Shown here piece by piece: positions 1-18,377 of a stretch of 18,377 bases of DNA. A program made the position numbers and the translations under genes. The stretch lies in contig JBHLNS010000057.1 in NCBI GenBank assembly GCA_048941285.1, positions 1 through 18,377 of the forward strand, written 5' to 3'. The notes under the pieces are model-generated. The model did not search any database and was not told the origin of the DNA. It worked only from the letters and a program-made list of their open reading frames with translations. The stretch's first letter is position 1. Each line of letters starts with the position of its first letter. Origin of the DNA: Promethearchaeota archaeon. GTDB lineage: Archaea; Asgardarchaeota; Lokiarchaeia; Sigyniarchaeales; SOKP01.

Positions 1-1457
1 GATGGAACCATATCTGTAGTTTTACAATATGTCAGTTCAATTTGTGGAATTTCAGGTGAACCTCCAATTATAAATGGCACAATCATGGAGTCTCTAATTC
101 CAATATCATGAGAGAATGGTGAATCTCCAACTGTCTGTCCATGTTCATAATTAAAGTAATAATCCCCTAATGTTGAAACTATGATATCACAAGATCTAGG
201 ATTCTTAAAATAACGTGGAATTTGATCGATAATCATAGGAAAATTGATGGTATTTGTAGCTTCTAACCATTCTTCTAAAGTGTGAAACTTATTATCCAGT
301 ATCTTTGCAGCTATTTCATTTTCACTATATTGATAAAACTCTTTTCCTTCAAAGATATATTTTGTTTGTTGATCTTTCCCAAAACCTCGATATTCAATCA
401 TACCATGATATTTTTTGTTAGAATCTTTTTCAGAATATTCAATATGAATTATACCCTTTTCTGGCGTATTGTTACTGTCCCTATAATACATATATTTAAC
501 TCCTGGAATCTCCCATAAAGTCTCAAAAAGATTTATTTCTTTTTTTCCAGTTCTATTTACTTTGAAGTTTTGCATTTCTTGAATGGAAGGATGATGGTGC
601 CATGTTTCTCCTGGAAAATTGAAGAAGCCAACTGAGCCAAAATTACAATCAAAATCTCCAGTTCCTTTTTCAGGAACATATGGGACTAATCCTTTTTGTT
701 TTATGAATGGTTCGAGATTAAAATTTTTTTTTGCTTGATAATTGCCATGATCTGAGATGAGACCTATTGCTGTAGAATCATAATACCCCGTCCTTTTTAG
801 TGTACTAATTAAAGATCCAAGATATTTATCACATTCAATAATTAGATTAATATAATTGCTATCATTGAATCCTTTTCTATGCATAATATCATCTGTTTGG
901 AAAATATATCCAACACTGATTCTTGGAACTTCCCTATTTGAAAAATAACTTTGCGGATGTTCAAATGCAATTGCAATATTATTAAAGATTCCTTCTACAT
1001 CAAATACACTTCTTCCAGCAACAAAATAAGCTCCTCTAAATAGGAAACAACTTGAACTTAAAACATTTCCTTTTGGTGCTTGTTCAAAAATGGTTTTGAC
1101 ATTTTTACCAATATCTTTATTCACTTTTAATAATTGAGATCTATCTCCATAATTGCGAATGAACGGAGTTTTTTTACTCATTGATGGAGGATCAATGCGG
1201 TTTAGCCAATGATACATTGGAACACCACTTCCTTCCTTGGGAAAATATCCCGAATACGCTCCTGTTATAATATTACCATAACAAGGAAAAGTGATAGCTG
1301 GATAAGAAGTAATACAATTTGAACATTTTATCCCCTCTTCAGCAATTTTAGCCATATTTGGAAGTCTTTTTTCTTTCATCAATTTAAACAACTGTTCAGC
1401 ACGAACATCATCAATGATGATCAGTATTACTTGGTTAACTTTAGCGTTCCGATTCAT
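1..1457 (-). CDS. Alkaline phosphatase superfamily protein (nucleotide pyrophosphatase/type I phosphodiesterase-like), 3'-truncated by the window edge
   Basis: Absent from the ORF track because its stop lies outside the window. Hand translation from ATG 1457 gives MNRNAKVNQVILIIIDDVRAEQ...ITSYPAITFPCYGNIITG. Later segments are DIMHRKG and GLISDHGNY, and near the edge SHDIG...VPFIIGG...KTTDMVP. These match the metal-binding and Thr-nucleophile motifs of NPP-type enzymes. Confidence 0.88.
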   Translation of the reverse strand, partial: MNRNAKVNQVILIIIDDVRAEQLFKLMKEKRLPNMAKIAEEGIKCSNCITSYPAITFPCYGNIITGAYSGYFPKEGSGVPMYHWLNRIDPPSMSKKTPFIRNYGDRSQLLKVNKDIGKNVKTIFEQAPKGNVLSSSCFLFRGAYFVAGRSVFDVEGIFNNIAIAFEHPQSYFSNREVPRISVGYIFQTDDIMHRKGFNDSNYINLIIECDKYLGSLISTLKRTGYYDSTAIGLISDHGNYQAKKNFNLEPFIKQKGLVPYVPEKGTGDFDCNFGSVGFFNFPGETWHHHPSIQEMQNFKVNRTGKKEINLFETLWEIPGVKYMYYRDSNNTPEKGIIHIEYSEKDSNKKYHGMIEYRGFGKDQQTKYIFEGKEFYQYSENEIAAKILDNKFHTLEEWLEATNTINFPMIIDQIPRYFKNPRSCDIIVSTLGDYYFNYEHGQTVGDSPFSHDIGIRDSMIVPFIIGGSPEIPQIELTYCKTTDMVP

Positions 1458-1574
1458 ATTTGTCAAAATTTTGATAACAATTTATATAAATTTAAAATAA
1501 AATATAGTTGCATAGAATTTGAATTTTTAATTATTAAAGATTAATAGGAAATAATCTCAATGTAATTAACAATA

Positions 1575-2636
1575 ATGGAAACAACTCATAAAATATATTT
1601 TAAAGATTCATCTAATATGGCTGAAGTGGATTCAGAGTCTATAGATTTAATAATAACATCGCCTCCATATCCAATGATCGAGATGTGGGATTCATTATTC
1701 TCTTCTTTAAATAGTGAGGTCGATCAAGCCATTGAAGGAGGAAATGATAAGAAAGCTTTTAATCTAATGCATAGAGAATTAGATAAAGTTTGGAAGGAAG
1801 TAACCCGAGTGTTAAAATCAGGAGGAATAGCTTGTATAAATATTGGTGATGCAACGAGAAAAATAGGTCAAAATTTTCAATTATTCCCAAATCACATTAA
1901 AATTGCAAATTTTTTCCACAAAAATAACTATATTGAATTACCTAACATCCTATGGAGAAAACAAACAAATAGTCCAAACAAATTTATGGGTTCTGGCATG
2001 CTTCCACCAAATGCATATGTGACTCTTGAACATGAGTACATTTTACTTTTTAGAAAAGGAGATGCGAAAAGAGAAATGCCACCTAAACTGGAAAGGAGAT
2101 ATCATAGTGCTTTCTTTTGGGAAGAAAGGAATAAATGGTTTTCAGATATCTGGGAGGATATAAAAGGAATTTCCCAGAATATGAAAAGGAAAAACGATAA
2201 TCAAAAAAAAATAAGAGACCGTTCAGCCTCCTATCCCTTAGAATTACCATATCGTTTGATTAATATGTTTTCCTTATATGAAGATATTGTTTTGGATCCA
2301 TTCTGGGGAACAGGAACAACTTCATTAGCTGCAATGATTTCGGGAAGAAATTCAATTGGGTATGAAATTAACTCTAAATTTAAAGATATCTTTAAAGAAA
2401 ATATAGATAACCTTAAAAAATTGAGTCTTGAAGTTAATAATAAAAGAATCAATCAACACATTGATTTTATCAAGGAATACAAGAAAAGATTTAAAGATAT
2501 TAAATATAATTCAGTTCATTATAAATTTCCTGTAGTAACAAAACAAGAAATTGGATTTTTATTATATCTAATAAAAAATTATAGTGAGGATGAGAATAAA
2601 TTTATTCTTAACTATCAAAAATTTGAGTTTAATTAA
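1575..2636 (+). CDS. Site-specific DNA amino-methyltransferase, beta class (N6_N4_Mtase; probably m4C)
   Basis: Catalytic DLIITSPPY is N-terminal and SAM-binding VLDPFWGTGTT is C-terminal, which is the beta-class order. Also HEYILLFRK and GRNSIGYEI. SPPY is typical of N4-cytosine enzymes. Confidence 0.92.
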   Translation: METTHKIYFKDSSNMAEVDSESIDLIITSPPYPMIEMWDSLFSSLNSEVDQAIEGGNDKKAFNLMHRELDKVWKEVTRVLKSGGIACINIGDATRKIGQNFQLFPNHIKIANFFHKNNYIELPNILWRKQTNSPNKFMGSGMLPPNAYVTLEHEYILLFRKGDAKREMPPKLERRYHSAFFWEERNKWFSDIWEDIKGISQNMKRKNDNQKKIRDRSASYPLELPYRLINMFSLYEDIVLDPFWGTGTTSLAAMISGRNSIGYEINSKFKDIFKENIDNLKKLSLEVNNKRINQHIDFIKEYKKRFKDIKYNSVHYKFPVVTKQEIGFLLYLIKNYSEDENKFILNYQKFEFN

Positions 2637-2653
2637 TAAATAGATGGTTTTTC

Positions 2654-2733
2654 AAAATCCTTTCTCGAGCAGAGTTTTCGTCAAATAACTTTCCATATAG
2701 GGCTTTTTTATTTGAGTCATTATTTAGGATTTT
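2654..2733 (-). promoter_or_regulatory. Putative SECIS element (eukaryote/Asgard-type, kink-turn core) in the 3' UTR of the 2734..3654 gene
   Basis: Minus-strand RNA after the UAA: AAAAUCCU-AAAUA-AUGAC-UCAAAUAA-AAAAG-CCCUAUAUGG-AAAG-UUAUUUGA-CGAA-AACUCUGCUCGAGAA-AGGAUUUU. It has an 8-bp helix I, an AUGA/GA core, an 8-bp helix II, and unpaired apical As with a CC/GG mini-stem. Confidence 0.75.
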
Positions 2734-3654
2734 TTACTTACAATCTTCAGCTTGCTGGAGATTAATTTTTATAAAAGCTTCTTCTTGAAGATTACGCTGT
2801 TCTGATTTTACAGATCGGTTTACTTGATGTAAATGTTTCATCGCATCATTTTTTCCTTGCTTGATGTTTTCAATTAGTTGTTCCTTACTCAAACCACCAG
2901 AAATGACGAGAGCTGTTTGAAAGGTATGACCAGGCTCGATAGTCATGAATTCGATCTGTAAGGCAGATAAGATTTCTCCTTTTCCTCTATATAAAGTATT
3001 AGAAAGATTCATTTTAGTATGATCAACTCTAAAATCTTTTGTTAAACATGACTCGTAGTTTGTCGATTTAGAAATGGGTGAAAATCCACCATATAAACCC
3101 GTATCATCATATTGGTAAATTATATCGTTTTCTTCATCATACCCTGACATATCATTGTCATAACCTTCAAGTCCATTTATATCAAAATCAAATACAAAAT
3201 ACATTGAGAAATCTTTCATAGCAAAATCAGAAATGTTTTTTATAGTAAAAAATGTACTGATATACGGTACTTTAGGGGGATTAAAGATGTCCTTGTAAAC
3301 GCGCACAAATTCTTTTTTTTCTAAAGGTATTGATTTGATTTGTTTTTCTTGGACTAATTTTTTTAAATATTCTGTAATATTGAAATCTAAGGTAATTCTG
3401 CTAATTTTTGTCCCAGCTCTTGTATTTACCATATTATATATGGGTGTGGGCTCAATATTTTTTAGAATCACTGGAATCGTACCAATCTTTTTCCCTTCTA
3501 GTTTAAAACTAAACCAAGGGCCAGTTAGTTCTTGTTCACTAAGATATATGAGATATCTGTCTAAATATGTAAGCTCTTTGATTGAAAATCCCATTACATA
3601 TCCACGAGTATTTCAGGTTGCAAGCACATCATGCCAAATAATTTTAAGTACTAT
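2734..3654 (-). CDS. Uncharacterised protein; candidate selenoprotein (in-frame TGA at 3613..3615 read as Sec). The ORF track gives only the 286-aa part 2734..3594
   Basis: Upstream of ATG 3594 the frame reads ATA GTA CTT AAA ATT ATT TGG CAT GAT GTG CTT GCA ACC TGA AAT ACT CGT GGA TAT GTA ATG, i.e. (M)VLKIIWHDVLAT-U-NTRGYVMGFS. GGAGG sits 8 nt before the ATA, and a SECIS-like element follows the stop. The CDS itself is secure; the confidence given is for the extension. Confidence 0.7.
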
Positions 3655-3660
3655 TTTTTA

Positions 3661-3670
3661 AACCTCCTTC
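3661..3670 (-). promoter_or_regulatory. Shine-Dalgarno-like ribosome binding site GAAGGAGGTT
   Basis: GGAGG at 3667..3663 lies 8 nt from the in-frame ATA at 3654 but about 70 nt from ATG 3594. Confidence 0.7.
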
Positions 3671-3757
3671 TACTTATTTTTAAGAATTTTATTCACTTTA
3701 ATTAGGGTATTACTTATAAAAAAATGAGAATTCATAAAAAAGTTTGTATTAGAGGGA

Positions 3758-4738
3758 TTAAAGATTTTCTACAACTCTATATGCAATATATAAGAAAGCA
3801 TCATTAACATTCTCACCAGTTAAAGCTGATGTAAGAATATAATGAAACCCAAATTGTTTTGCACTAACCTTTATGTCTTCTTCCTTTATTACAATTTCTT
3901 CTTTTAAATCAGATTTATTTCCAACTAATACAATGGGAATAGTTCTTGATACTGATTTTTTGATTTCATTATACCATTTTTCAATACTTTTTAGATGGTT
4001 TGGCCGAGTTCTATCTATAACTATGAAGGCCGCATTTGCACCGTTATAAAATCTTGCCCTATTCAAATCAAATTGGCTTTGCCCACCAATATCCCAGATA
4101 AGAAAATTCATTTTAGTTTTTTCGCTTAGAAGAACTGTCTTTTTACTTAATTGGACTCCTATTGTACTTATATAATCTTTCTCGAATCTATTTTCCACAA
4201 AACGTCTAATTAAGGATGTTTTGCCCACTTGATAATCTCCACAAAATATTAGTTTATTCGAGTATTCTCCTGTTAAATTAGGCAGTTCTCCTCCTCGAGT
4301 TTTGGATAAAGCTTTTATTATTTCAGGAATTTTTGGTGAAACAAATTGATTTCCAGTTAAAATTAACTCAACCTTAGAAGATATGTGCTCAGAGTATACT
4401 TTCAATTCAATATCGGTTGCTATTTTATCTGCTACTGTAGACAGTATTGAATTTGGGCCCATCGAACTAAATACAAACTTTTTACCTCCTGTTTCAGTGA
4501 TATTAAAGAAACTAGTAGTTGTTCCAAATTCAGTTTTAATTCTATCTATGTATGTATCAAGCATAGCAGAAAGCGCTCCAATAATTGCATCTGATTCTTC
4601 TTCATTTTGTTCTTTAGACTCTGAAGCGATAATAAAACCATTTCTATCACATATGGCTACACCTAAAAGGCCCTCAACTTCATTAAGATAATTATGTAGA
4701 ATTTCATTTAATAGTTCTGTGTTAGGAAGACGTTCCAT
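3758..4738 (-). CDS. Roadblock/LC7 domain fused to a Ras-superfamily (Rab-like) small GTPase
   Basis: N-terminal VEGLLGVAICDRNGFIIAS...IIGALSAML is a roadblock pattern. GTPase motifs: G1 GDYQVGKT, G2 YISTIGV, G3 WDIGGQ, G4 NKSD, G5 TSALTG. No C-terminal prenylation cysteine. Confidence 0.92.
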   Translation of the reverse strand: MERLPNTELLNEILHNYLNEVEGLLGVAICDRNGFIIASESKEQNEEESDAIIGALSAMLDTYIDRIKTEFGTTTSFFNITETGGKKFVFSSMGPNSILSTVADKIATDIELKVYSEHISSKVELILTGNQFVSPKIPEIIKALSKTRGGELPNLTGEYSNKLIFCGDYQVGKTSLIRRFVENRFEKDYISTIGVQLSKKTVLLSEKTKMNFLIWDIGGQSQFDLNRARFYNGANAAFIVIDRTRPNHLKSIEKWYNEIKKSVSRTIPIVLVGNKSDLKEEIVIKEEDIKVSAKQFGFHYILTSALTGENVNDAFLYIAYRVVENL

Positions 4739-4883
4739 TGGTATTGCATTTTTTTTAATTTCTATATTTGTAGATAATATAAAAATAATATAAATATAGG
4801 TATTTGGATAATATTAAAGTCATATCTAAGTCAAGTTCTACATACCATTCTATTTTAAATTTATTTCATCTCTTTTTTCATTC

Positions 4884-5048
4884 ATGATTGAAAGTTCATC
4901 TACTGATCCAGATATTTTAAAATATGAAGAAAATATTGCCAAAATCTTAGATCGAGCAGTCAAACTCTTTCGAAGAACCAATCTTGAAGAACTCGCAGAT
5001 AAGTGGGATCGAATTTTGAAGACATACAACTCAAAGAAAAATTGCTAA
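4884..5048 (+). CDS. Small hypothetical protein (54 aa) or gene remnant
   Basis: ATG 4884 to TAA 5048: MIESSSTDPDILKYEENIAKILDRAVKLFRRTNLEELADKWDRILKTYNSKKNC. Helical, protein-like composition; fills the gap up to the convergent methyltransferase. Below the track's size cutoff. Confidence 0.45.
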   Translation: MIESSSTDPDILKYEENIAKILDRAVKLFRRTNLEELADKWDRILKTYNSKKNC

Positions 5049-5063
5049 TAAGGAAGTCGAAAT

Positions 5064-6977
5064 TTAATCATTTAAAGTTTTCATAAAATCCAATATATAA
5101 TTCCGATTGTTTTCAGAAATCTGATACAAATCAAAAATTAAGAAGTCGATGATCTCTTGGAGATACTCCAATTCCTCAAGGTTTTCTAAAATTAATTTAA
5201 CATTCTCAACTATTTTTTTAACATACTCCTTCTCTTTACTAGAAATTGGAACTTTAATTGGAAAGATTTTTATTTTTTCTATTAAAATTCTTGGAAATAA
5301 TTTTTTATAGGTTCCAAATGATTTAATGAAGTAGTACGAGAAAAGCATTGAATTAAAGAGACCTAATAAATAAAAATTATTAAACTCATCAATAGAAGAT
5401 TTCATAACTCTCAAATTGTAATAAGATTGAGAAGTATATGATAAATTTTTATCATAAGTCGCACAAATTTTATTTTTTTGGCTTAGTTGTCTTATTACTA
5501 TTCGATCTTCATAAAGCTTCATACTTTTATAGTTTATTCCAACTTTAGAAGTATCTATATATTTATATTGAGTTTTTTGATAACGATTTATAGAATATAG
5601 GAATAATTGAAAATTTTCTTTAATAGCATTTGAGGGAATTGACTCGTAAATAATGTTTTCAATATTTTCTTTATTTAAATTTGATTTACAGTGAGGACAT
5701 TTTAGTGATTTTTGAGGAATTGGTGAATATTTATTGCATTTTATACAATATATTATCTTTCCCGTTTTAGTTAGTTCAACACCTCTACCTAAAGCCAATA
5801 TAATATTATATGTTTTGAATAAATCTTTTAATTTTGGAAATTCTGAGTTTAATTGTTTAAGAATCAATATATCCATCTGATTTAAATGAATCAAATATTT
5901 GTAACCCCATGTTTCTAAAATTTGTTGTGGTATTGTATATTCATTTCGATTTGATAATTTTAAGCTAATTTGGTTGTTTTTTCTTTCGAAGATAATACTC
6001 TCCTTTTCTAAAATTAAGATAATATTCGAAACAATAAGGTCACTAAACTTTGGTCCTGTGTGATAAATTTGTTTAATTTTTGTTTTATTATATATATATC
6101 TCCTGAGTATTGAGCGACTTGAAAGAGCTAAAAGTGAATCTGGAACGATAAAGCCTAAAATACCCCCCTGCTTCAAAATTCTTATTCCAATTTCTATAAA
6201 TATCTGATAATAATCATATTGACCATCATTAGTTTCAAAAGCAGACTTTTCAATTATTTCTCTTTGATCTAAGGGAATATCTCTGATAAATAGATATGGA
6301 GGGTTTCCTATTACATAATCATACTCATCTTCAGTATCTAATGTTAATGTATTATTATTTTCTATATTGAATATTGGAAGACGGAAATAAGGCTCAGAAA
6401 ATAAAATTAAATTTAATAATTCAAATAAAGTAAACCGAATATTAATTTGACATAAAATACAAGCAATTGGATTGATATCTATTCCAATAACATTATTTTT
6501 AACTACAGAAATTATAGATTTTGCTTCCTTAACTGTTAATTCAGAAATTTTCTCGTGGTGATAAATTTTAAGAAATCTTTTAATTAAAACTCTAATTGCT
6601 TCAATAATAAAGCTTCCAGAACCACAACTGATATCAATTATTTTTTTTATTTCAATTTGGTTAATGTCATCATAACCTGAAGCTTCTAATATGTATTTAA
6701 CTACTGAAACGGGAGTATAAAATTCACCAAGTTCTTTTTTTTCTTTATGATTTCGCGTTTCTTCATATACTCTACTTATTAGATCAAAATCTGTTACTTT
6801 TAATTCAGAGGAAACATCATCTCTTATGGTTTTCTCGGCATTATTAAACCACCCAAGACTTTCAATTATTCTTTTCAAGAAAATATCACAATTATGCTCA
6901 TTCAAACCAACTTTGTAAAATTGTTTTAAATTTCTTATAACATCTTCTTTTTCCAGATAATTAATAAAATCTTGCAT
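5064..6977 (-). CDS. N6-adenine DNA methyltransferase, gamma class (Eco57I/TaqI-like) with C-terminal target-recognition domain
   Basis: Motifs in gamma order: KELGEFYTP, IIDISCGSGSF, GIDINP, YDYVIGNPPY, LKQGGILGFIVP. The TaqI_C-like tail has RIVIRQ and YLLGLFNSMLFSYYF. The N-terminus is too short for an endonuclease domain. Confidence 0.9.
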   Translation of the reverse strand: MQDFINYLEKEDVIRNLKQFYKVGLNEHNCDIFLKRIIESLGWFNNAEKTIRDDVSSELKVTDFDLISRVYEETRNHKEKKELGEFYTPVSVVKYILEASGYDDINQIEIKKIIDISCGSGSFIIEAIRVLIKRFLKIYHHEKISELTVKEAKSIISVVKNNVIGIDINPIACILCQINIRFTLFELLNLILFSEPYFRLPIFNIENNNTLTLDTEDEYDYVIGNPPYLFIRDIPLDQREIIEKSAFETNDGQYDYYQIFIEIGIRILKQGGILGFIVPDSLLALSSRSILRRYIYNKTKIKQIYHTGPKFSDLIVSNIILILEKESIIFERKNNQISLKLSNRNEYTIPQQILETWGYKYLIHLNQMDILILKQLNSEFPKLKDLFKTYNIILALGRGVELTKTGKIIYCIKCNKYSPIPQKSLKCPHCKSNLNKENIENIIYESIPSNAIKENFQLFLYSINRYQKTQYKYIDTSKVGINYKSMKLYEDRIVIRQLSQKNKICATYDKNLSYTSQSYYNLRVMKSSIDEFNNFYLLGLFNSMLFSYYFIKSFGTYKKLFPRILIEKIKIFPIKVPISSKEKEYVKKIVENVKLILENLEELEYLQEIIDFLIFDLYQISENNRNYILDFMKTLND

Positions 6978-7191
6978 ATAGAATTGAAATTTGAGACTCT
7001 TTTTTAAAATTAGATTATATGAATATTTCTTTTTTATTATTTGTAATTTAATAGTAGTAATTAAATATCGAGATAATGTTATAAAATTGAAGATAATACA
7101 AATTGAGAAATACTTTTCTATAATATATCAAATTTAAATAATATTGAACTATATTTTTTTTGTCTGAGTTAAAGGAATTCAAAGTTGAATT

Positions 7192-8292
7192 ATGATAATT
7201 GATATCTTTCTGATCATAGTTTCATTGATAATTTCTTTTATCGCAGTATCCTTTCTTTATTTCAATCGTGAAAATTTCGGCAGCAAACTTAATGTCTTTT
7301 TAAATAGTCTAATTTATTTATCTCTGGGAATCATCTTTTTCGCATTATTTTTATTATCCACAGAAATTTATTTTGCAGAAGAATTTGCTCTTGGATTATT
7401 CCACCTATCAATAATATCTTGGCTTTTTTCATTAAGTATGTTGAATCTTATTCACAAATATATAATTAATTTTGAAAAGAGCCCAATTTTATCCATACTT
7501 CTATATTCTTTATTGATTGGAACAATTCTAGGGTTATTTTTCATTCCAAATTCAATTACAATTAATCTAAATAATGGATTTTATAGTTTTGATTTTCAGA
7601 ATCATATGCTTCTATATTTGCTCCTCACCTATAATTTTATTATAATTTTTGTAATGTGTTATAATATTGTAAAATTCTACCATAATCTTCGAAATGATAA
7701 ATCAAGAAAAATGTTAAGTATCCTTACCATTGAGTTTTGCGTTATAATTATTTTTTATTCGATTTATATTATTTCGCAAAATCTCATTTTCAAGTATTTT
7801 TATGTTGCTTTTTATTTACTCGGTGCAATTCTAGTTTCCTATTATTTAATCAAAAGCCCTGCTCTTTTTATTGAACTTACTAATAAGATTTATGATTTTA
7901 TAATCTTCCATAGAAGTGGAATCCTCCTGTATTCATATAATTTCGAGACTGGAGAAGAGACTGATGAATCTCTCTTAAAAGGTTCTATTTTGATAGGAAT
8001 TAATCATATTCTTTCTAATTTTATTAATAAAAAAGATCAATTAGGATTAATTAAAATGCAGAATAGAGATATAATATTTGAATATGATAATAATCATGGT
8101 TATGCTCTATTATTAACTATTAATCATAAGAATTCATTCATAGATAAAGCAGTAAGCAAATTTATGACAAAATTCACAGATTTAAATAGAGAAAAATTGA
8201 AAAATTTAACAGGTCTTATTGATGCATCAGAATTTCGAAATGCAAAAGATATAATAACAGAATTTTTTGAACCTTTTATAGTTAAAGATTGA
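7192..8292 (+). CDS. Seven-TM membrane protein with C-terminal longin-like domain
   Basis: About 7 hydrophobic segments in aa 1-220, with a polar loop between TM4 and TM5. The soluble domain IYDFIIFHRSGILLYSYNF...ILIGINHILSNF...DIIFEY...YALLLTI...KAVSKFMTKF fits the longin beta-beta-alpha-beta-beta-beta-alpha-alpha pattern. Confidence 0.72.
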   Translation: MIIDIFLIIVSLIISFIAVSFLYFNRENFGSKLNVFLNSLIYLSLGIIFFALFLLSTEIYFAEEFALGLFHLSIISWLFSLSMLNLIHKYIINFEKSPILSILLYSLLIGTILGLFFIPNSITINLNNGFYSFDFQNHMLLYLLLTYNFIIIFVMCYNIVKFYHNLRNDKSRKMLSILTIEFCVIIIFYSIYIISQNLIFKYFYVAFYLLGAILVSYYLIKSPALFIELTNKIYDFIIFHRSGILLYSYNFETGEETDESLLKGSILIGINHILSNFINKKDQLGLIKMQNRDIIFEYDNNHGYALLLTINHKNSFIDKAVSKFMTKFTDLNREKLKNLTGLIDASEFRNAKDIITEFFEPFIVKD

Positions 8293-8471
8293 ATAGATCA
8301 GACATATGAATTTTTGAAAAAAGAATTCGAAAATGATTAATTTCTTTAAAATGATGTCAGACTTTATCAATAATAAATAAAATTATATTTATGACGATGT
8401 CTTCTATATTCAATAATATACTTGAAATTAATTCAATAATATAAAGTCAATAAAACGCTTGAAATTAATAT

Positions 8472-9614
8472 ATGTCTCTTGTATTTTTGGTAATAATAAT
8501 AATTGCTTTTGCCATAACTTTATGTGTGAGTATTTACACTATGATATTCATTTTTAGACATCGTGATAAATATGGCATAATGTTTTCAGCAATCTTAAAT
8601 GTCTTAGCAATTTTCAATATGGTTACTATCTATTCTTCTTTATATATTTTTTCTGTATTCATTTTATTTTCTGAAAGTATCAATATCTTACTATGGAAAC
8701 TTTGCTTAATATTTGGTTTTATTTCATTATTTATTACTGCATTAATCTATACTTTTTTAAAGGAATTTAAGAGGATTCCATATTTTCCATTCTTATTATT
8801 TACTACTCTAAGTGGTTTATTAATAGGATCGTTCTTTTCACCAAATTCGATTCAAATTTCAATTAATTCTCTCAATTCTCCACCGTTTTTGGTTAATGAT
8901 ATCTCAACAATAAATTACACCTTTAATATCGTAACTGGATTAATTATAGTGATATTTCAATCATGCTCTGTGCTATATTATTTCATTCTTTCTTATTTAA
9001 TATATAATAAAGCAAGAAATAAAGAACCAGTTAAGGGTCTAATTGTTAATACTTTTATCTTTTTTCTTCCCCTCTTAATGTACATATTATATATTTTTAT
9101 TCAAACCTCAATTTTTAGAGAATTACATATTCTTTTATTGTGGATTGCTATTTTATCGATCTGTTATACACTAGTGAAAAAACCTGAAATGTTTTCAGAA
9201 TTAACAAACAAGATTTATTATATTAATATTTACCATAAATCTGGTATTTTATTATATTCCTATCAATTTGGTACTGAAAATAATCAAGTTGATTCAACTA
9301 TATGGGGAAATATTCTTATTGGTATAAACCATATACTCTCTGAATTTGTTGATCCAAGAGATCAAATAGATGTACTCCAAACTAACAACTCAGATATTAT
9401 CGTAAATTACGATAATCTTGGATTTGCTGTAGTGCTTATAACAAATCATAAAAATGATATTTTAAAAAAATTAATGGATAAATTTGCAAAAGAATTTAGA
9501 GAAAAATATAAGAATGAGTTAACTGAAATCCAAGATCTCAATAAATTAATCAATGTTTCGGAATTTAATGAGACAAAAGCTATTATCGAAAATAATTTTC
9601 AGGTGTATTTATAA
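8472..9614 (+). CDS. Seven-TM membrane protein with C-terminal longin-like domain (tandem paralog)
   Basis: Same architecture. Shares ELTNKIY..I.H.SGILLYSY.F, G.ILIGINHILS.F, NHKN and LI..SEF...K.II with 7192..8292. Confidence 0.72.
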   Translation: MSLVFLVIIIIAFAITLCVSIYTMIFIFRHRDKYGIMFSAILNVLAIFNMVTIYSSLYIFSVFILFSESINILLWKLCLIFGFISLFITALIYTFLKEFKRIPYFPFLLFTTLSGLLIGSFFSPNSIQISINSLNSPPFLVNDISTINYTFNIVTGLIIVIFQSCSVLYYFILSYLIYNKARNKEPVKGLIVNTFIFFLPLLMYILYIFIQTSIFRELHILLLWIAILSICYTLVKKPEMFSELTNKIYYINIYHKSGILLYSYQFGTENNQVDSTIWGNILIGINHILSEFVDPRDQIDVLQTNNSDIIVNYDNLGFAVVLITNHKNDILKKLMDKFAKEFREKYKNELTEIQDLNKLINVSEFNETKAIIENNFQVYL

Positions 9615-9721
9615 ACTTTTCTCCTATTAAAACTGGTCTCCAGAAACTATTAATTAATTATCATTATAAACTAATTAATAACAAATACTAAAAATTTACA
9701 AATATAAGGTGTAAAAACAGG

Positions 9722-10282
9722 TTGTCTTCAAAATTCTGTCCAAAATGTGGAAATGAATTAGAACCAAGTGCAACTTTTTGTCCGTCTTGTGGTACAAATT
9801 TAAAGGATTCTAGCACAAAACTAAAAATCAATCAAGAAAACATAGAGTTTGCTGGTTTTGGAACTAGATTAGTGGCACTCATTATTGATAGCATCATTAT
9901 TGGTTTAATTGGTTCCTCTCTTTCATTTATAGTCTTTATCTCATGGATACCGTTTAATATTTTCGATCCTCTAGGTGGATGGTGGTATGTCTCATTTCCA
10001 TTTGATTGGATGCTTGGATTTCTATATCACTGGGGCATGGAAACTTATAATAAAGGTCAGACTGTAGGGAAAATTGCCATGAAAATTAGGACCGTAGAGG
10101 AGAAGACTTTAAATTTGGCAACAGCAAAAAATTATGCTATTAATAACATTTTTAAGAGTTCTCCTTTTCTACTTTTAGATTTTCTTATTGGAATCATCAA
10201 AAATTCTGGAGATCCTAAACGAAGAATAAGAATTATGCAAAATGCCTCTGAAACAGTTGTGATTACTGTACAGGAAAAATAA
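9722..10282 (+). CDS. RDD family membrane protein with N-terminal zinc ribbon
   Basis: KFCPKCG...FCPSCGT zinc ribbon. RDD motifs FAGFGTRLVALIID and GQTVGKIAMKIRTV. TTG start. Confidence 0.88.
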   Translation: MSSKFCPKCGNELEPSATFCPSCGTNLKDSSTKLKINQENIEFAGFGTRLVALIIDSIIIGLIGSSLSFIVFISWIPFNIFDPLGGWWYVSFPFDWMLGFLYHWGMETYNKGQTVGKIAMKIRTVEEKTLNLATAKNYAINNIFKSSPFLLLDFLIGIIKNSGDPKRRIRIMQNASETVVITVQEK

Positions 10283-10409
10283 CAATTAATTTTTAAAATT
10301 CCTTTTTTATTTTATAGAAATTCTTTATTATCTAAAGATTTATAAAGCTATATTGGTATGAATATCCTCAGAGAATACTTTTTTCCCCGAAAATGAGATG
10401 ATTTCTTAA

Positions 10410-10616
10410 ATGGAACAATTAGAATATCAAGATTATGAATGGGCTCATGATTGGAAAGTAATTGTAGAAATTTTTGACACTATTGATAAATTAAAATCTA
10501 TGTTTAAGAAGTTAGATGTCCCATATTTGAGAGAAATTCAACAAAAATTGCTGGTACTTAATCTTGAAAAGTATGCTTGGTCCTTACAAAATTACATTAT
10601 TGAAAAATATTCTTAA
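10410..10616 (+). CDS. Small hypothetical helical protein (68 aa)
   Basis: ATG-started ORF with typical coding composition; no recognisable motif. Confidence 0.75.
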   Translation: MEQLEYQDYEWAHDWKVIVEIFDTIDKLKSMFKKLDVPYLREIQQKLLVLNLEKYAWSLQNYIIEKYS

Positions 10617-10823
10617 TCTGTGATATAAGTTTTAAGTCTAATCTATAGAGGTTATATTGGAATTTTCCATCTCAATATTGAATCTGAGCTTTAAAACTAC
10701 ATTAAGAAAGTAGAAGAACAATCTCCTGATTATTATATGAAAGCAGAGGGATTGAGGGCTGGCACAATATCTTTACCCAGTACAGATGTTAAGATAAATT
10801 AGAATATATTTTTCTCTTTTTTC

Positions 10824-11537
10824 TTAATTAGACATTTTCTTTTTCCTTATTTTATTGAGTAAATCCACTATGTTTAGTTTTAACATTATATAAACAGTTA
10901 TAACTGTGAAATACAAAGTGACCAAACTGAATATCCAATTTTCTGCTCCTAAGAAAATACAAATGTTAAGAAAATTATATGCAAAAATAAGCATTAATCC
11001 TAGTTTTCCAAGCCACACCCAAAAAATAGTCTTTTTCACATCATATTTTATTAAGCCTAATGGAACTGTTATCATATCATCATTCAATGGTGTAAACCCA
11101 AAAAGAAAAATAAGAAAGGGGGCTATTTTCGGGTGTTCCACTAAATATCGCTGATATTTTTTCAGATTTGTTTTGCGCTCTTCTGAAATCACTTCAGAAG
11201 CCCCTCTACCAACAAAATATCCTCCCATCTCTCCTACTAAGCATCCTAATGAAGCAATAAATCCTACCAAAAAGGGAATAAAATAATTTATTTGTCGAAA
11301 TGGCTCAGAACTAAAACACACTACAAAAATATAAGGAGTAGGGACAGGGAGTAAATTTCCAATCATACATACCCAAAAAGTAATTAGGAGACCAGAACCT
11401 AAATCCTGAAATGGAGGATATAATGAGATATTTTCTATTAGTTCTCGATGAGATTCATTTAATAAAAGATCTATAGCAATTATAGTTATTGCTATAAGTA
11501 AAATTATGAAAACAATATCTATCTTTTTAAGTTTCAA
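10824..11537 (-). CDS. DedA/VTT (SNARE-associated) family membrane protein
   Basis: GNLLPVP, ASLGCLVGEMGGYFVGRG, IFLFGFTPLNDDMITVPLGLIKY and WLGKLG are characteristic of DedA/YqaA-like proteins. Confidence 0.87.
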   Translation of the reverse strand: MKLKKIDIVFIILLIAITIIAIDLLLNESHRELIENISLYPPFQDLGSGLLITFWVCMIGNLLPVPTPYIFVVCFSSEPFRQINYFIPFLVGFIASLGCLVGEMGGYFVGRGASEVISEERKTNLKKYQRYLVEHPKIAPFLIFLFGFTPLNDDMITVPLGLIKYDVKKTIFWVWLGKLGLMLIFAYNFLNICIFLGAENWIFSLVTLYFTVITVYIMLKLNIVDLLNKIRKKKMSN

Positions 11538-11610
11538 TTTTAATTTCTAATTCCTTATAATAAATAAGGTAAAGTCATTAGAATTTTAAAACTATTGGAT
11601 TAAGAGCATT

Positions 11611-11763
11611 TTAAGGCATAGATAGACTAACAAAAATAATGCCTAAAATTATGCTAGCAAAAAGAACCGATATGATTACTAACCCAATCATTTTTCTTTT
11701 CTTATATCTTTTTTTTAATGATACCCTGTGATTTCGAGAAGGGCTACGTCGAGTGTGAGACAT
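11611..11763 (-). CDS. Small single-pass membrane protein (50 aa) with a highly basic N-terminus
   Basis: ATG 11763 to TAA 11611: MSHTRRSPSRNHRVSLKKRYKKRKMIGLVIISVLFASIILGIIFVSLSMP. Starts 32 nt after the gelsolin gene on the same strand. Not in the ORF track. Confidence 0.68.
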   Translation of the reverse strand: MSHTRRSPSRNHRVSLKKRYKKRKMIGLVIISVLFASIILGIIFVSLSMP

Positions 11764-11795
11764 GATCAACTTTTTTAAGGAATTTGGATTAGAAA

Positions 11796-12500
11796 TTAAT
11801 CTTTATCGCTAATTTCTTTCATATTTTTTTTATTTGTTTTTTGCAAAAGTTCAATCAATACTACATTATTAAATGAAAAAAGCATTCTAGGAATATAGTT
11901 TTCTGCCAGATAGGGACCATCTTCAATCTCCTCTTTTAAGGGAAAAAGTCTTTTCTCTTTTATAACTGAATTCAAATAATTCCTATCATATTCTTTATAT
12001 CCATATACTTTATTATTTACTATAACAATTTTTCTTTCATAACCTTCTGGTATGCCAACTTTTTCAAGAAGTAACAAAATTTTTTCTTTTGATAGAGTTT
12101 CAAGTAATTCCAAATCTTGCTCAGTTCCTTCATAAGCAGGTCCAGTTTGTACTTCTATATATTCAGGTTCTTTTTCTATACCTGCAGCTACTTTAAAACC
12201 TACAGTTTCATTACCTTCATCAACCGCACTTATTTTAAAACCAATCCCATACCTATCCCTAATACTGGGTGCTAATTTAGCAGCAATAAATTTCATCCTT
12301 GTTGTGGTATTACTCCCATGCCAAATCCATACTCTATAGCGAGTAGGATCAACAAAAAGTAGAACAAAATCTGGATCCAAGAGTTCAGGTATATCAATAT
12401 CATCTGTTAATTCTAATTCTTGAAATTCATTCAGTTGATCATTATATTGAAAAACAGTGATTTTCTCTTTCTTCAATTCTGGTAATTCATCGTCTGACAT
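11796..12500 (-). CDS. Gelsolin-domain protein (one gelsolin domain plus C-terminal domain; Asgard 1DGelX-like architecture)
   Basis: LLDPDFVLLFVD...VWIWHGSNTTTRMKFIAAKLA...ISAVDEGNETVGF matches the gelsolin repeat consensus (L...D...W.W.G...A...V.EG.E...F). About 120 additional C-terminal residues follow. Confidence 0.8.
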   Translation of the reverse strand: MSDDELPELKKEKITVFQYNDQLNEFQELELTDDIDIPELLDPDFVLLFVDPTRYRVWIWHGSNTTTRMKFIAAKLAPSIRDRYGIGFKISAVDEGNETVGFKVAAGIEKEPEYIEVQTGPAYEGTEQDLELLETLSKEKILLLLEKVGIPEGYERKIVIVNNKVYGYKEYDRNYLNSVIKEKRLFPLKEEIEDGPYLAENYIPRMLFSFNNVVLIELLQKTNKKNMKEISDKD

Positions 12501-12581
12501 AATCTTGAATAAACAGTTTTCAATTTATAATACTATATAATTTTCCTACTTTATTACTATTTTGGCTTGAAAACGATCAAA

Positions 12582-12740
12582 TGCGGGAAGGGAGATTTGA
12601 ACTCCCGAACTCCTACGAGAATGGGTGTCTCTAGTTAAAAGCTCTATGCGATTATAAACTTTTAGCTGTCTGAGCCCATCGCCTTTAGTCGACTGTTTTT
12701 ATACTCATGTTAACCATTGACCAAACTTGGCAATTCCCGC
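12582..12740 (-). tRNA. tRNA-Leu(CAG) with two introns: 12685..12716 (32 nt, position 21/22) and 12627..12668 (42 nt, position 37/38)
   Basis: The spliced 85-nt product has acceptor GCGGGAA/TTCCCGC and D-arm GCCAAGTTTGGTCAA|AGGC. The anticodon arm is ATGGG-CTCAGA|A-CCCAT, the long variable arm contains CTC-GTAG-GAG, and the T-arm is GGGAG-TTCAAAT-CTCCC. Discriminator A, no encoded CCA. Relaxed bulge-helix-bulge motifs occur at both introns. Confidence 0.9.
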
Positions 12741-12824
12741 AAATTTTGTAAATTGTCTAAATGACTTATTTTTATAAATAATAATTATTTAAAATTCCTA
12801 AAAATTTTAATCATTACTTTACAA

Positions 12825-13472
12825 TTGGATAAGTTTGTTTACAAAATGCAAGAGCTCCTAAATAAAATACAACAACTTAAAGACAGCGAAATTAAAGGCC
12901 GTATTGACACTCGTTTAGCTGAATTCAGTATTATTAAAGATCAAAAAAAAGAGACAATTTTTAAAGAACTCTGTTTTTGCATCATGACGGCTAACTGTTC
13001 CGCTGGAAAATGTATTGAAGTGCATGAGCATATTGGAGACCATTTTCTCACATTTTCTGAATTCGAGTTAGCGAATAAATTGAAAGAACTCGGATATCGC
13101 TTTCCAAATATCAGATCCAATTTTATAATTGGAGCAAGAAATAGTATTTCTGAGTTAGAAAATATCATCAAATCAGGAAATGATAGAAATAATCTACGAG
13201 AATGGCTCGTAAGGAATATCAAGGGGATTGGATATAAAGAAGCGAGTCATTTCTTAAGAAATATAGGATATACTAATTATGGAATTATAGATTTTCATAT
13301 CGTAGATTTATTAGTTAAATATAAAATAGTCGAAAAACCTAAAACATTGACAAAAACTAAATATTTAGAAATCGAAACAGTTCTGAAAAGTATCGGAAAT
13401 AAATTAAATTTGAATATGGCAGAATTAGATCTTTATTTATGGTTTTTGGAAACAGGAAAGATTCTTAAATAA
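12825..13472 (+). CDS. ogg: 8-oxoguanine DNA N-glycosylase/AP lyase (Ogg2 family, HhH-GPD); true start may be ATG 12846
   Basis: ELCFCIMTAN, GYRFPNIRS, REWLVRNIKGIGYKEASHFLRNIGY, IIDFHI, ELDLYLW and the C-terminal TGKILK with the conserved terminal Lys. Confidence 0.95.
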   Translation: MDKFVYKMQELLNKIQQLKDSEIKGRIDTRLAEFSIIKDQKKETIFKELCFCIMTANCSAGKCIEVHEHIGDHFLTFSEFELANKLKELGYRFPNIRSNFIIGARNSISELENIIKSGNDRNNLREWLVRNIKGIGYKEASHFLRNIGYTNYGIIDFHIVDLLVKYKIVEKPKTLTKTKYLEIETVLKSIGNKLNLNMAELDLYLWFLETGKILK

Positions 13473-13540
13473 AAATTTTATCTTATTTCTCTCAGACTTA
13501 GATAAATAAGTAATAAATATAAAAAACAAAAAAAAAGTTA

Positions 13541-14239
13541 TTATTCTGATTTTAAATTATATCCACAGCCAGGACAAAATTTAGCTTCAGCTTCAGGTAT
13601 TTTTTCACCGCATACTGGACAAAAATTAATTCCATGAGGTTCTTCAATTGGCTGAGAAACTGGTGGAGCTATTTCTTCACTTACTTTAGATTGGTCGGGC
13701 ACTACTGGAGTTGATTCTTTACTTATTGGCTTTATTTCAACTTCTTCTTCACCCGCAATTCTTCCAATTATAAATCCTAAGATTGACAAACCTCCTCCGA
13801 TAAATGGACCGATAGTCGCGAAACTAGGAATAGCTCCTTCCCAAAAACTAATGGGCATCATAAGATTTATTATGCTGTATATAAAATATCCAAGTTCTGT
13901 TCCTGCAATATAAAAGATCGCTCCTCCGATAAGCAAAATACCAAGAGCTATCCATGAACCTGGAGATTTTTTTCCTCTATGAGTAAGAGGTGATATAAAC
14001 AATATAATTGTACATACTACTATTAGAATAGTACAAATTATCCCAACAATCATTAAACTTGGAATACCAAGAAATCCAGGTACGGGAAAACCTCCACCAA
14101 CACGTAGGTAAAAAGTATTCATATATATAAGATCATGTGGAGGACCGGGGAAAATTACTGCCGGTGTAAAAATACTAATTACTGTAAGGATACTTCCAAT
14201 AAAAGGTAATATCCAAATATATTTTCTTACTTCAGACAT
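13541..14239 (-). CDS. Four-TM membrane protein with Pro/Glu linker and C-terminal zinc ribbon
   Basis: Four hydrophobic segments, a low-complexity linker, and NFCPVCGEKI...KFCPGCG. GAGGT lies upstream of the ATG. Confidence 0.82.
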   Translation of the reverse strand: MSEVRKYIWILPFIGSILTVISIFTPAVIFPGPPHDLIYMNTFYLRVGGGFPVPGFLGIPSLMIVGIICTILIVVCTIILFISPLTHRGKKSPGSWIALGILLIGGAIFYIAGTELGYFIYSIINLMMPISFWEGAIPSFATIGPFIGGGLSILGFIIGRIAGEEEVEIKPISKESTPVVPDQSKVSEEIAPPVSQPIEEPHGINFCPVCGEKIPEAEAKFCPGCGYNLKSE

Positions 14240-14501
14240 AGATTCTACCTCTTTTTTAAAATTTTCAAATATGCATTTTACATAAATTAATTAAGGTATT
14301 TGCTGATTTATGATTATTTTGTTTTTTATTTAATACTTTACCTCAAAATGAAAGCTTTGAGAATTATCAAAAAATACAGTATTATAAATTTACGTATCGA
14401 AAAAATTAGCATTAAGTAAATTTAAATATTAATGTATGAAATTCAACATAATTATATAGAAGATTAAGATGTGATTCAAGGTTAGATACCCAAATAAATT
14501 A

Positions 14502-16337
14502 TTGAATTTCATTAAACAGCTTCCTGAAGGGCATCCTGGTTTAGAAAAATTAATTAAAAAGAATTATAAGAAGATCAATTTCGAAAAATTAAAATTTGTA
14601 AACCCAAACATTAGTGAAGAGAAAATTGAGCAGCTTTATAAGCTAATAATAGAAGATATTTTCGTTTTAAATCCAAATGCTTTAGAATTGCTTAAAACTT
14701 TATCTTTAATTAGTATGGAAATAGATACTAATATTGATGGTGGATCTATTAAAACTTGTTGTAAAATACCTCATATAGATCAATCTCTCAATTTTTTACT
14801 GGATTCTGGAATAATAAAGAAAAAGAAAAGCAAAGTAGAAAGATATGAACTTTCTTTTCTGGAAATTCGATATGTTATAGAACCTCTTATAAATAAAAGA
14901 AATCATGAAAAAGTAATAAAATACTATGAAAAAAAGTTAAGGAGACTCAAGGATAATGTTCAGGATGAGATTGAGATTTTGTTTCATAAAGCAAAAGTAA
15001 ATCCGTCTGAGGATTTAGTAAACCAATTTTTATTAATTGCTAATAGCATAGAAGAATTTGAATATACCCATAAAAGATTAATTGATATTGCAGAAGAATT
15101 ATTTCAGCTTGAAAATAAATATAAAGCACCAATTTTAATAGTACTTGGTAAGTTATTTTCTGACTTAGGAAATTCAGAGGGTGCAGAGGGTATTTATCTC
15201 AAAGCTTTAGAAATTTACAAAAATTTGGCAGAAAAGTATTACAAAATATATTTACCTTATGTCGCGGCAACTCAAAAAAACCTTGGAACCTTATATCTTG
15301 ACTTAAAGCGATTTGAAGAGGCTGAAAAGATATACAATGATGCTTTGAGTTCTTATAAAGAATTAGAAAGACAATATTATGACGTACATTCGCCTGATTT
15401 TCATTCAAAAGAGTATAAGAGTATAGAAAAATCATTCATCGATGATTTAAAGGCATATAATGATTTATTAAAAAGATATTATGATATTTATCTACCAGAG
15501 GAGCCCCCACTTGTAAGTGATTATGGAAATATCGGAATTGATTTAGATTTATTAGAGGATATTAAAGATGGATCCATTGACTCTATAGATAGTTACAAAA
15601 AATTGGCGAAAATTTATTACGATATGTATTTATTCGATATTGCTAAAACGCAGAGTAGTCTAGGACTCATCTATAGTGAATTAAATAAATTTGATGATGC
15701 TGAAAAGATGCATCTTGAAGCTTTGAAAATTAAAAAGAAAATAGCAGAACACTTTCCTGACCAAGTCTTACCTGAATTAGTACTTACGCTATTAGATCTC
15801 GGAGATTTATATGCTAGTTTAAAAAAATTTAAGGAGGCAGAACCTATGTTCATTGAAGCATTAAATATTTCTCAACAATTAGCAGAACAAAATCCAGAAG
15901 TATATATGTTCAACATTGCTCTCATTCAAAACTCCTTAGGTACTATATATTCTAAATTGCAGAAATATGAGGACTCAGAAAAATATTACCTTGAAGCATT
16001 AAAAATTTTTGAAGTATTTGCTAATAAAGATCCTAAAAACTATTCTTACAACGTTGCTGACGTTCAGAATAATCTTGGAAATTTATTTATGATCTTAAGA
16101 GATTTTGATAAAGTTGAATTATATCTTAATAAAGCAATTAAGAACGATCCCGGAAATATAGATGTAATATATAGTCTCGCTTGTCTTGAATCACTTAGAA
16201 ATGACCAAGTAAAAGCCTTAGAATTATTAACTAGTGTAATTAAGTTTGATGAAAGTTATATCGAGAAAGCAATTGAGGATAAACGACTTGAGAATCTCAG
16301 AGATTTAAAAGAATTTAAAGAATTAACAGCTGGTTAA
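14502..16337 (+). CDS. Tetratricopeptide repeat protein
   Basis: Repeated units such as VAATQKNLGTLYLDLKRFEEAEKIYNDAL, IAKTQSSLGLIYSELNKFDDAEKMHLEAL and VADVQNNLGNLF. C-terminal YSLACLESL...EDKRLENLR capping domain. Confidence 0.92.
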   Translation: MNFIKQLPEGHPGLEKLIKKNYKKINFEKLKFVNPNISEEKIEQLYKLIIEDIFVLNPNALELLKTLSLISMEIDTNIDGGSIKTCCKIPHIDQSLNFLLDSGIIKKKKSKVERYELSFLEIRYVIEPLINKRNHEKVIKYYEKKLRRLKDNVQDEIEILFHKAKVNPSEDLVNQFLLIANSIEEFEYTHKRLIDIAEELFQLENKYKAPILIVLGKLFSDLGNSEGAEGIYLKALEIYKNLAEKYYKIYLPYVAATQKNLGTLYLDLKRFEEAEKIYNDALSSYKELERQYYDVHSPDFHSKEYKSIEKSFIDDLKAYNDLLKRYYDIYLPEEPPLVSDYGNIGIDLDLLEDIKDGSIDSIDSYKKLAKIYYDMYLFDIAKTQSSLGLIYSELNKFDDAEKMHLEALKIKKKIAEHFPDQVLPELVLTLLDLGDLYASLKKFKEAEPMFIEALNISQQLAEQNPEVYMFNIALIQNSLGTIYSKLQKYEDSEKYYLEALKIFEVFANKDPKNYSYNVADVQNNLGNLFMILRDFDKVELYLNKAIKNDPGNIDVIYSLACLESLRNDQVKALELLTSVIKFDESYIEKAIEDKRLENLRDLKEFKELTAG

Positions 16338-16482
16338 ATTACCTAAAATTTTTCTAATTTATTAGATAATATCTAGGTTCTCTTGTCTTCAGTTATATTT
16401 AATTTCGATTAAATATTAACTTGAAATTCCTTAAAAACTTAAGGGTTTATCAAATTTAGAAGGATCGGAAACTTTAAGATAT

Positions 16483-16701: not shown

Positions 16702-16794
16702 AAGATAAAAAATAATTATTGAGATATAAAAATTAATTTTTCTTTTATAAGTAAAAGGTAGATCCTAGACTTAAACCTAATCACCTTATAGTTA

Positions 16795-18336: not shown

Positions 18337-18377
18337 TAATCTGAACAATTTCTTCAAAATTTTATTGTAGCAATTTT

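Follow-up and report, generated by a model that had tools for sequence, protein, structure and literature searches.

Contig JBHLNS010000057.1 of GenBank assembly GCA_048941285.1 comes from a Promethearchaeota archaeon (Lokiarchaeia; Sigyniarchaeales; SOKP01). The window, by which we mean the whole stretch of 18,377 nucleotides (nt) analysed here (positions 1 to 18,377), contains on its minus strand a gene whose stop codon, UAA (2736-2734), is directly followed by an 80-nt RNA fold (2733-2654). The public protein record of this gene holds only a 286-residue form starting at the AUG at 3594. A longer predicted coding sequence (2734-3654, minus strand; 306 codons plus UAA) has an in-frame UGA as codon 14 (3613-3615), which we predict to be read as selenocysteine (Sec). 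We conclude with high confidence that the fold is a functional Sec insertion sequence (SECIS) of the Lokiarchaeial type II (selD/SPS-like) kind, located in the 3′ untranslated region (UTR) of a selenoprotein gene of about 306 codons. The assignment of the whole element (2654-2733, minus strand) as a three-armed type II lokiSECIS draws on its minimum free energy (MFE) fold, its presence with covariation at 34 of 34 loci, a strict structural descriptor and a covariance model of selD SECIS. What was computed comprises the structure, its conservation and covariation, a conserved UGA flanked on either side by a coding signal, a Sec/Cys column in the protein family, an architecture like that of the selD SECIS, and the Sec machinery of the genome.

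All parts of the element lie on the minus strand and are described here from 5′ to 3′. The 5′ arm of helix I, AAAAUCCU (2726-2733), begins right behind the stop codon and pairs with the 3′ arm, AGGAUUUU (2654-2661). As read from the sequence, a spacer AAAUA connects the 5′ arm to AUGA (2717-2720), the 5′ half of a core of the kink-turn (k-turn) type. AUGA lies 13 nt past the stop codon (16 nt from the first base of the stop) and is followed by a C at 2716. Helix II consists of eight base pairs without mismatches (RNAfold), formed by UCAAAUAA (2708-2715) and UUAUUUGA (2681-2688). It carries the apical region AAAAG-CC-CUAUAU-GG-AAAG (2689-2707), in which RNAfold places a 2-bp CC/GG mini-stem, a 6-nt loop and a bulge of 5+4 nt. 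Past helix II, a C at 2680 precedes the GA (2678-2679) that forms the 3′ half of the core and is followed by AAA. A third arm, the side hairpin CUC-UGCUC-GAG (2664-2674), comes next on the 3′ strand, ahead of helix I, with AA behind it. The third arm, the core and the two helices together have the topology of a three-way junction.

The original prediction had named the two helices, the core, the apical region and the side hairpin, and all of these pieces are present: for the minus strand, RNAfold returns exactly this structure as both MFE and centroid fold, with an energy of -15.3 kcal/mol (z = -2.33; 3 of 200 shuffled sequences fold as well). The fold of the plus strand is at chance level (z = -0.08; 86 of 200 shuffles as good). 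Taken alone, the folding energy of the element is only mildly unusual. It stands out from chance because it is conserved, not because of its modest z-score.

Of 36 other genomes from the genus, 33 contain orthologues of the 286-residue open reading frame (ORF), with 72-90% identity. We examined 34 loci including the window's own, 30 from the orthologue search and four fetched separately. The element follows the stop codon at all 34 (one copy is truncated by a contig end), and the sequence past the element cannot be aligned. In a MAFFT alignment of these loci, 94.1% of the pair cells are paired, compared with 22-51% when the 3′ partners are slid along the sequence. Covariation among orthologues, which had been proposed as a check of the element, is indeed present: six pairs show changes on both sides (16 cells), a level reached by none of 500 shuffles. 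These changes are located in the third arm, the base of helix I and the mini-stem; helix II adds one change from C-G to U-A.

The side hairpin, originally put forward as a possibility, has turned out to be real: SECIS elements of the genus regularly have such a third arm, and the stem of this hairpin covaries. One of its pair positions is U-A at 26 loci, C-G at five and U-G at two, and another is C-G at 28, U-A at three and U-G at one. The stem as a whole reads CUC/GAG at 23 loci, CCC/GGG at two, CCU/AGG at two and CUU/AAG at one, contains a G·U pair at three and is mismatched at three. G·U pairs would become A·C on the opposite strand, so the structure fits the minus strand only. The central part of helix I, AAUCC/GGAUU, is nearly invariant, and its basal pair varies (A-U 13, G-U 3, U-A 3, U-G 1, other 14). 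In helix II, 98.9% of the cells are paired. The near-invariance of helices I and II signals strong selection, yet leaves little covariation.

The unpaired motifs are conserved as well. GA is present at 34 of 34 loci and AUGA at 32, with AGGA at the other two; the hairpin is thus not retained without the core, which would have spoken for another kind of structure. The N·N position flanking the core, C·C in the window, is variable (U·U 12, C·U 9, C·G 5, A·U 5, and others). The apical region starts with AAAA at 33 loci and also ends in G at 33. A mini-stem of 2-4 bp is predicted by RNAfold at 29 loci, with differing sequences, and UGC occurs in the loop of the third arm in 33 of the 34 elements.

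A structure at this position could also be an intrinsic or bidirectional terminator hairpin between convergent genes. An N6_N4 DNA methylase gene (1575-2636, plus strand) is convergent with the selenoprotein gene, its stop codon being only 17 nt from the element, and helix I ends in UUUU in the window. However, the run of U behind helix I varies among the 34 loci (e.g. GGAUAUAUU and GGAUUAAAA), the most conserved parts of the element are the unpaired AUGA, GA and A-rich bulge, and the plus strand folds no better than its shuffles. Furthermore, the methylase gene is present at just 15 of the 34 loci, against 34 for the element, which therefore travels with the gene upstream of it and not with the convergent gene pair. 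We consider a terminator highly improbable. The methylase gene itself is probably a mobile restriction-modification remnant, because it is present in only those 15 related loci.

A C/D-box small RNA gene, in which C and D boxes form the k-turn, would likewise show AUGA...GA with a closing stem, and four distant orthologues have UGAUGA at the 5′ side of the core. C/D-box RNAs have a C box RUGAUGA and a D box CUGA at their ends, with guide sequences between them. The boxes in the window would be AAUGAC and CGAA, the interior is a self-paired hairpin rather than a guide, no C/D family of Rfam matches at the element, and the element always abuts the stop codon of the same gene. We give this explanation practically no credence.

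The SECIS elements of the same genome offer a direct comparison. In the genome (3.55 Mb, 29.7% G+C), selD is present as two copies in tandem, and each copy has a single in-frame TGA. A simple pattern of AUGA, stem, A-rich loop and GA picked up the SECIS behind HdrA+VhuD, HdrA and SelD, plus many chance matches; it was rejected as unspecific, as it matched the genome 5318 times before and 68 times after filtering. A loose three-arm descriptor did not discriminate either (22 matches in the genome compared with 23, 14 and 20 in shuffles). A strict three-arm descriptor gave seven matches in the genome and none in each of six shuffled genomes, and each of the seven lies behind an ORF that contains an in-frame TGA: HdrA+VhuD twice, HdrA, SelD, two small membrane ORFs, and the gene studied here. 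The third arm was present in all five SECIS initially found by the pattern that did not require one. Looser scans also revealed SECIS-like folds downstream of a VhuU-like gene and of a Prx-like gene with UxxC.

The two small membrane ORFs are located on other contigs of the genome, at about 38400-38760 of C36 (plus strand) and about 170-520 of C65 (minus strand), and comprise about 75 and 82 codons, respectively. Each has one in-frame TGA (...IIAUGHIL... and ...GGDGUGC...) with a strict three-armed SECIS behind it, and by these features they look like further unlisted micro-selenoproteins.

An alignment of selD SECIS from 30 genomes (51 sequences; L082_A was excluded as too divergent) shows the order lower stem, AUGA, 8-bp upper stem, AAA(A/C) bulge, mini-stem, GA, short spacer, third hairpin and lower stem. 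Its pair cells are 93.3% paired, with 75 cells changed on both sides, a level found in none of 500 shuffles. The selD SECIS of the genome thus has the same three-armed build as the element studied here. The primary sequences of the two are unrelated except for the motifs, and the 2-3 nt that separate the third arm from helix I are absent in selD. The HdrA/VhuD SECIS are also alike, so that the absence of any likeness to bona fide SECIS of the genome, which would have counted against the original prediction, was not observed. UGC is found in the third-arm loop of seven of the nine SECIS candidates of the genome and of most selD elements; conservation of this motif suggests a specific contact. 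It was also observed that one SECIS in the genome serves the UGA codons of both HdrA and VhuD, up to about 2.5 kb away. Given this range, the distance of 893 nt between the in-frame UGA (3615-3613) and AUGA in the present gene, close to the 900 nt originally given, is unproblematic.

A covariance model trained on the selD SECIS alone ranks the element first in the window, with 16.7 bits (E = 0.068, under a rough calibration); the next match scores 13.2 bits. Among 24 further sources, the model matches seven of eight orthologous elements (E = 0.037-0.77) and one of three distant selD SECIS, and found nothing else in these sources, which include nine loci of homologues with Cys. Sequence specific to selD dominates the model, which is why these scores are marginal.

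The genome contains a Sec tRNA (59.4 bits, above the Rfam threshold), which adjoins a gene for SepSecS (376 bits). An EFSec-like gene 4 kb from the tRNA scores 239.7 bits, just below the cut-off of the bacterial selB model, and there is a PSTK-like gene (153.9 bits). Judged by these genes, the genome appears equipped to use selenocysteine.

Upstream of the AUG at 3594, the reading frame is open through the TGA, back to an in-frame UAA two codons before an ATA at 3654-3652; in the window, it is thus open for only 14 codons ahead of the TGA. We compared the start region in 30 uninterrupted orthologues, excluding four loci with an insert (see below). The TGA is invariant in all 30 and also in the four with the insert. 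The codon 13 positions ahead of it is ATA in 28 of the 30, ATT in one, and shifted by one codon in one. ATG, GTG and TTG are missing from the open frame in 15 of the 30, and GGAGG ends 7-10 nt before the start codon in every one. In the window, a Shine-Dalgarno-like GGAGGU (3662-3667, minus strand) is located 7 nt ahead of the AUA (3652-3654, minus strand). From its conservation and the GGAGGU, we infer that AUA is the start codon. Substitutions were counted in 29 orthologues, L037 also being excluded for its one-codon shift. Ahead of the TGA, the variable sites at codon positions 1/2/3 number 8/3/13, and from the TGA to the AUG they number 4/2/6, compared with 20/20/20 in a non-coding upstream control. 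This three-periodic pattern is a coding signal on both sides of the UGA.

Seven short contigs from RNA libraries cover only 3341-3661 and 2561-2711, at a depth of 2-5 and without showing strand or ends; four runs were aligned, one of which placed none. Two of the contigs, from one study (3341-3661 and 3509-3659), end inside GGAGGU or immediately behind it, at most 7 nt ahead of the AUA, which is too little to call a transcription start.

We aligned 28 protein sequences of the family, among them 15 of the 34 same-genus ones. The column of the UGA contains U or C in all 28: U in 19 (the 15 same-genus sequences and four more distant ones) and C in nine, which belong to another family of the order. 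The original reading of the element as a SECIS is thereby borne out: the in-frame UGA of its gene is conserved, and homologues have Cys at the aligned position. The distant proteins have C-x-x-U or C-x-x-C, and all 27 sequences whose C-terminus can be read have a Cys one or two residues before the end. A profile search of 1.84 billion representative sequences revealed a small family, with 159 members at E ≤ 1e-3 and 17 at E ≤ 1e-30. Eleven of 13 library representatives inspected contain the CxxC segment and the other two start just past the Sec position, as would be the signature of truncated annotation. Pfam and NCBIfam have no family that matches the full-length protein or two distant homologues.

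In the loose three-arm test, applied from -100 to +400 around the stop codon, 24 of the 30 Sec forms from the genus give a match, located at +16 to +21; those that fail have AGGA in the core, contain a mismatch in the third arm or are truncated by a contig end. Three distant CxxU homologues from another family of the order (L040, L041 and L049) have an MFE fold with a three-way junction that straddles the stop codon, and the AUGA..GA core is present in two of them. At these three loci, scans starting 30 nt before the stop codon showed no core and the selD covariance model matched nothing; folding of the region around the stop later revealed the element. The SECIS-like fold overlaps the last 14 or so codons there, with AUGA inside the coding sequence.

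These results bear on a further alternative, namely that the conserved 3′ UTR structure has another role (a k-turn site for L7Ae or another protein, or a function in mRNA stability or translation), that the UGA ends an upstream ORF of 13 codons, and that the protein starts at the AUG at 3594. The public record does begin at this AUG, no canonical start codon exists further upstream, and k-turns are generally known to bind many proteins. Against this, codon periodicity and conserved residues run through the UGA and through the six codons ahead of the AUG, the homologues with Cys are continuous proteins with CxxC in exactly the same column, and the whole architecture of the element is shared with the SECIS of selD and HdrA/VhuD. 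We regard this alternative as improbable.

Several observations nevertheless weigh against a functional SECIS or the selenoprotein gene in front of it. The score in the selD model is marginal (E = 0.068, with its rough calibration), and an Rfam scan of the window found no SECIS or C/D family at the element even at E-values up to 10. Helices I and II are almost invariant, and the evidence for their pairing consists of conservation, energy and a single compensatory change. The coding sequence requires the non-canonical AUA start. Selenium incorporation and the 3′ end of the transcript are computational predictions. Within the genus, the first Cys of the motif, three residues before Sec, is replaced by L, F, V, I, M or Y, and the core of the distant homologue L049 deviates (AUGU/AA instead of AUGA/GA). 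Finally, the expected loss of the element from Cys-containing orthologues was seen in part: the selD model is silent at all nine Cys-form loci, but one of the nine passes the loose three-arm test and the loosest scan gave weak core-like matches of 6 bp at six of them.

We envisage the following mechanism for the SECIS and its gene. Translation would start at the AUA behind GGAGGU, and at codon 14 the UGA would be decoded by Sec-tRNASec, delivered by the EFSec-like factor, instead of causing termination. The downstream SECIS would recruit the Sec-specific elongation factor, either directly or through an adaptor. The tandem G·A pairs of AUGA and GA would form a k-turn, and the third arm on the non-bulged strand would convert this into a k-junction topology. 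Candidates for contact sites are the near-invariant A-rich bulge, the terminal G of the apical region and the loop with UGC. The actual insertion of Sec at the UGA, the folding of the core as a k-turn or k-junction and the identity of the binder are what we infer.

The structure predicted by AlphaFold2 from the 28-sequence alignment is mainly β, with a predicted local distance difference test score (pLDDT) of 88.5 and a predicted template modelling score (pTM) of 0.88; the termini are less certain. According to this model, the protein would be a β-sandwich with Sec near its N-terminus. The best Foldseek matches are cellobiose/cellodextrin phosphorylases of glycoside hydrolase (GH) family GH94, GH116 β-glucosidases and GH15 glucoamylase, with E-values of 3.6e-9 to about 1e-6, a query template modelling (TM) score of about 0.5 and a sequence identity of 9-15%. 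We take these matches to involve the non-catalytic β-sandwich domain of the glycoside enzymes. The likeness of the modelled structure is moderate and says nothing on catalysis. The CxxU/CxxC motif and the C-terminal Cys suggest a redox function, perhaps via a selenenyl-sulphide.

Directly upstream of the selenoprotein gene and on the same strand is a gene for a GTPase of the Ras/Roc family (3758-4738, minus strand), which has a weak roadblock-like match at its N-terminus. Such GTPases with a roadblock-like N-terminus are typical of Asgard archaea. The gene pair is conserved, the GTPase gene being the neighbour at 32 of the 34 orthologous loci. A gene for an Eco57I/TaqI_C-type methylase is located at 5064-6977 (minus strand).

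In four of the 34 loci (L012, L015, L022 and L026, from the relatives G030, G022, G031 and G024), an extra 28, 29, 31 or 32 nt are present directly 3′ of the TGA, putting the rest of the gene out of frame. The window's own genome does not have this insert, and the SECIS is kept in all four loci that do. The ends of the insert are conserved, and its hairpin varies with compensating changes. CUUG, whose last two bases are the U and G of the UGA, forms a helix with CAAG; then come a 3-nt bulge AAU and a CUUC...GAAG helix, and CAAG is followed by AAA or AUA. We read this geometry as a putative relaxed bulge-helix-bulge motif, in which an outer exon-exon helix is not evident around the insert at the four loci. 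For archaeal cbf5 pre-mRNA introns, the text of PMC2738675 gives the rule that the cut falls between the second and third residues of the bulge. Cutting the insert at these positions removes exactly the extra bases and restores the ...T-U-N-x-x-G-Y-V-M... of the uninterrupted orthologues. A repeat or miniature inverted-repeat transposable element was rejected as an explanation, the hairpin occurring at a single locus in each of the four genomes. The insert is possibly a mini-intron of a protein-coding Asgard gene.

A more ambitious reading, which we put forward tentatively and hold to be somewhat doubtful as a whole, is that all SECIS of this lineage are three-way 'k-junction' RNAs whose third arm, with its UGC loop, docks a SECIS-binding factor; that the gene belongs to a redox selenoprotein family on a β-sandwich like that of sugar enzymes, with a Rab-like GTPase as partner; and that some relatives have an endonuclease-spliced mini-intron behind the Sec codon. 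If the k-junction reading is true, it would define a structural class of SECIS that the papers cited below do not describe. No closer relatives of eukaryotes than the Asgard archaea are known, and only their SECIS are known to bridge the archaeal and eukaryotic ways of decoding UGA as Sec. The three-armed SECIS with its almost invariant core would be a well-defined RNA for finding the archaeal SECIS-binding partner, and the protein family provides a clean Sec/Cys series of CxxC, CxxU and xxxU.

How does the element compare with known systems? It resembles the euryarchaeal SECIS of Methanococcales and Methanopyrus in its location in the 3′ UTR near the stop codon and in the archaeal Sec machinery of its genome. 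Unlike these, as far as they are described in the texts cited below, it does not have a GAA_A bulge between a GC-rich lower stem and a GC-rich upper stem of 3 bp. With eukaryotic type II SECIS it shares the AUGA...GA quartet-type core, the unpaired adenines above helix II, the apical mini-stem, the 3′ UTR location and, as predicted, action over about 0.9 kb. It differs from them in its shorter helix II (8 bp), in the extra hairpin on the 3′ strand that creates the three-way junction, and in matching no SECIS family of Rfam. Eukaryotic SECIS are bound by SBP2. No SBP2 is reported from Asgard archaea in the text of Mariotti 2016 (PMC4989117) or in other papers.

The element also resembles the k-junction as described in the text of Wang et al. 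2014 (PMC4005666), in that a k-turn-type core is combined with a third helix that makes a three-way junction of the two-helix kink. That text describes k-junctions for thiamine pyrophosphate (TPP) riboswitches, not for SECIS, and the likeness of the element is one of secondary-structure topology only. No third arm of SECIS was found in print: the main text of Huang 2024 (PMC11227280) nowhere uses the word 'hairpin', and the text of Mariotti 2016 (PMC4989117) contains neither 'three-way' nor 'junction' nor 'third stem', figures and supplements of both excepted.

The closest known relatives are the lokiSECIS. The SPS-type lokiSECIS of Mariotti 2016 (PMC4989117) corresponds, going by the two texts, to the type II, eukaryotic SECIS-like Asgard structure of Huang 2024 (PMC11227280). 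As stated in the main text of the latter, the core of type II is (A/G)UGA ... (G/A)A flanking the upper stem, which has 7-15 bp with at most two mismatches; the mini-stem has 2-8 bp, the bulge 4-12 nt and the apical loop 2-6 nt. With 8 bp and no mismatch, a 2-bp mini-stem, a bulge of 5+4 nt and a loop of 6 nt, the element is within all of these numerical limits. The text of Mariotti 2016 (PMC4989117) adds that unpaired adenines open the apical region and that its last base is G, mostly preceded by A; it also states that standard SECIS models miss Loki elements. The element has the type II core and the A-rich start and terminal G of the apical region; the gene just ahead of it contains an in-frame UGA, and Sec machinery is encoded in the genome. 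Like the SPS/selD-type lokiSECIS of that text, it combines an AUGA_GA core with an 8-bp upper stem, unpaired adenines followed by a mini-stem, a G as last apical base and a location few bases past the stop codon. The original suggestion of a form intermediate between archaeal and eukaryotic SECIS gives way to this assignment, the type being already published as SPS-type lokiSECIS or type II (PMC4989117, PMC11227280).

The element differs from the published lokiSECIS set in the gene that it serves. Homology-based surveys list seven Asgard selenoprotein families, which are given in the texts of Huang 2024 (PMC11227280) and a 2026 review (PMC13188914) as SelD, FrhA/VhuU, HdrA, FrhD/VhuD, Prx-like, AhpF-N-like and DsbA-like. 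The present family was not found in the Asgard selenoprotein lists in the texts of PMC4989117, PMC11227280 and PMC13188914, figures and supplements excepted. The surveys would have missed it because annotation truncates the protein at the UGA and because the start codon is AUA. Taken together, these comparisons suggest that the element belongs to a SECIS kind that is already published and that it marks a selenoprotein family outside the seven listed ones, which would be the eighth in Asgard archaea.

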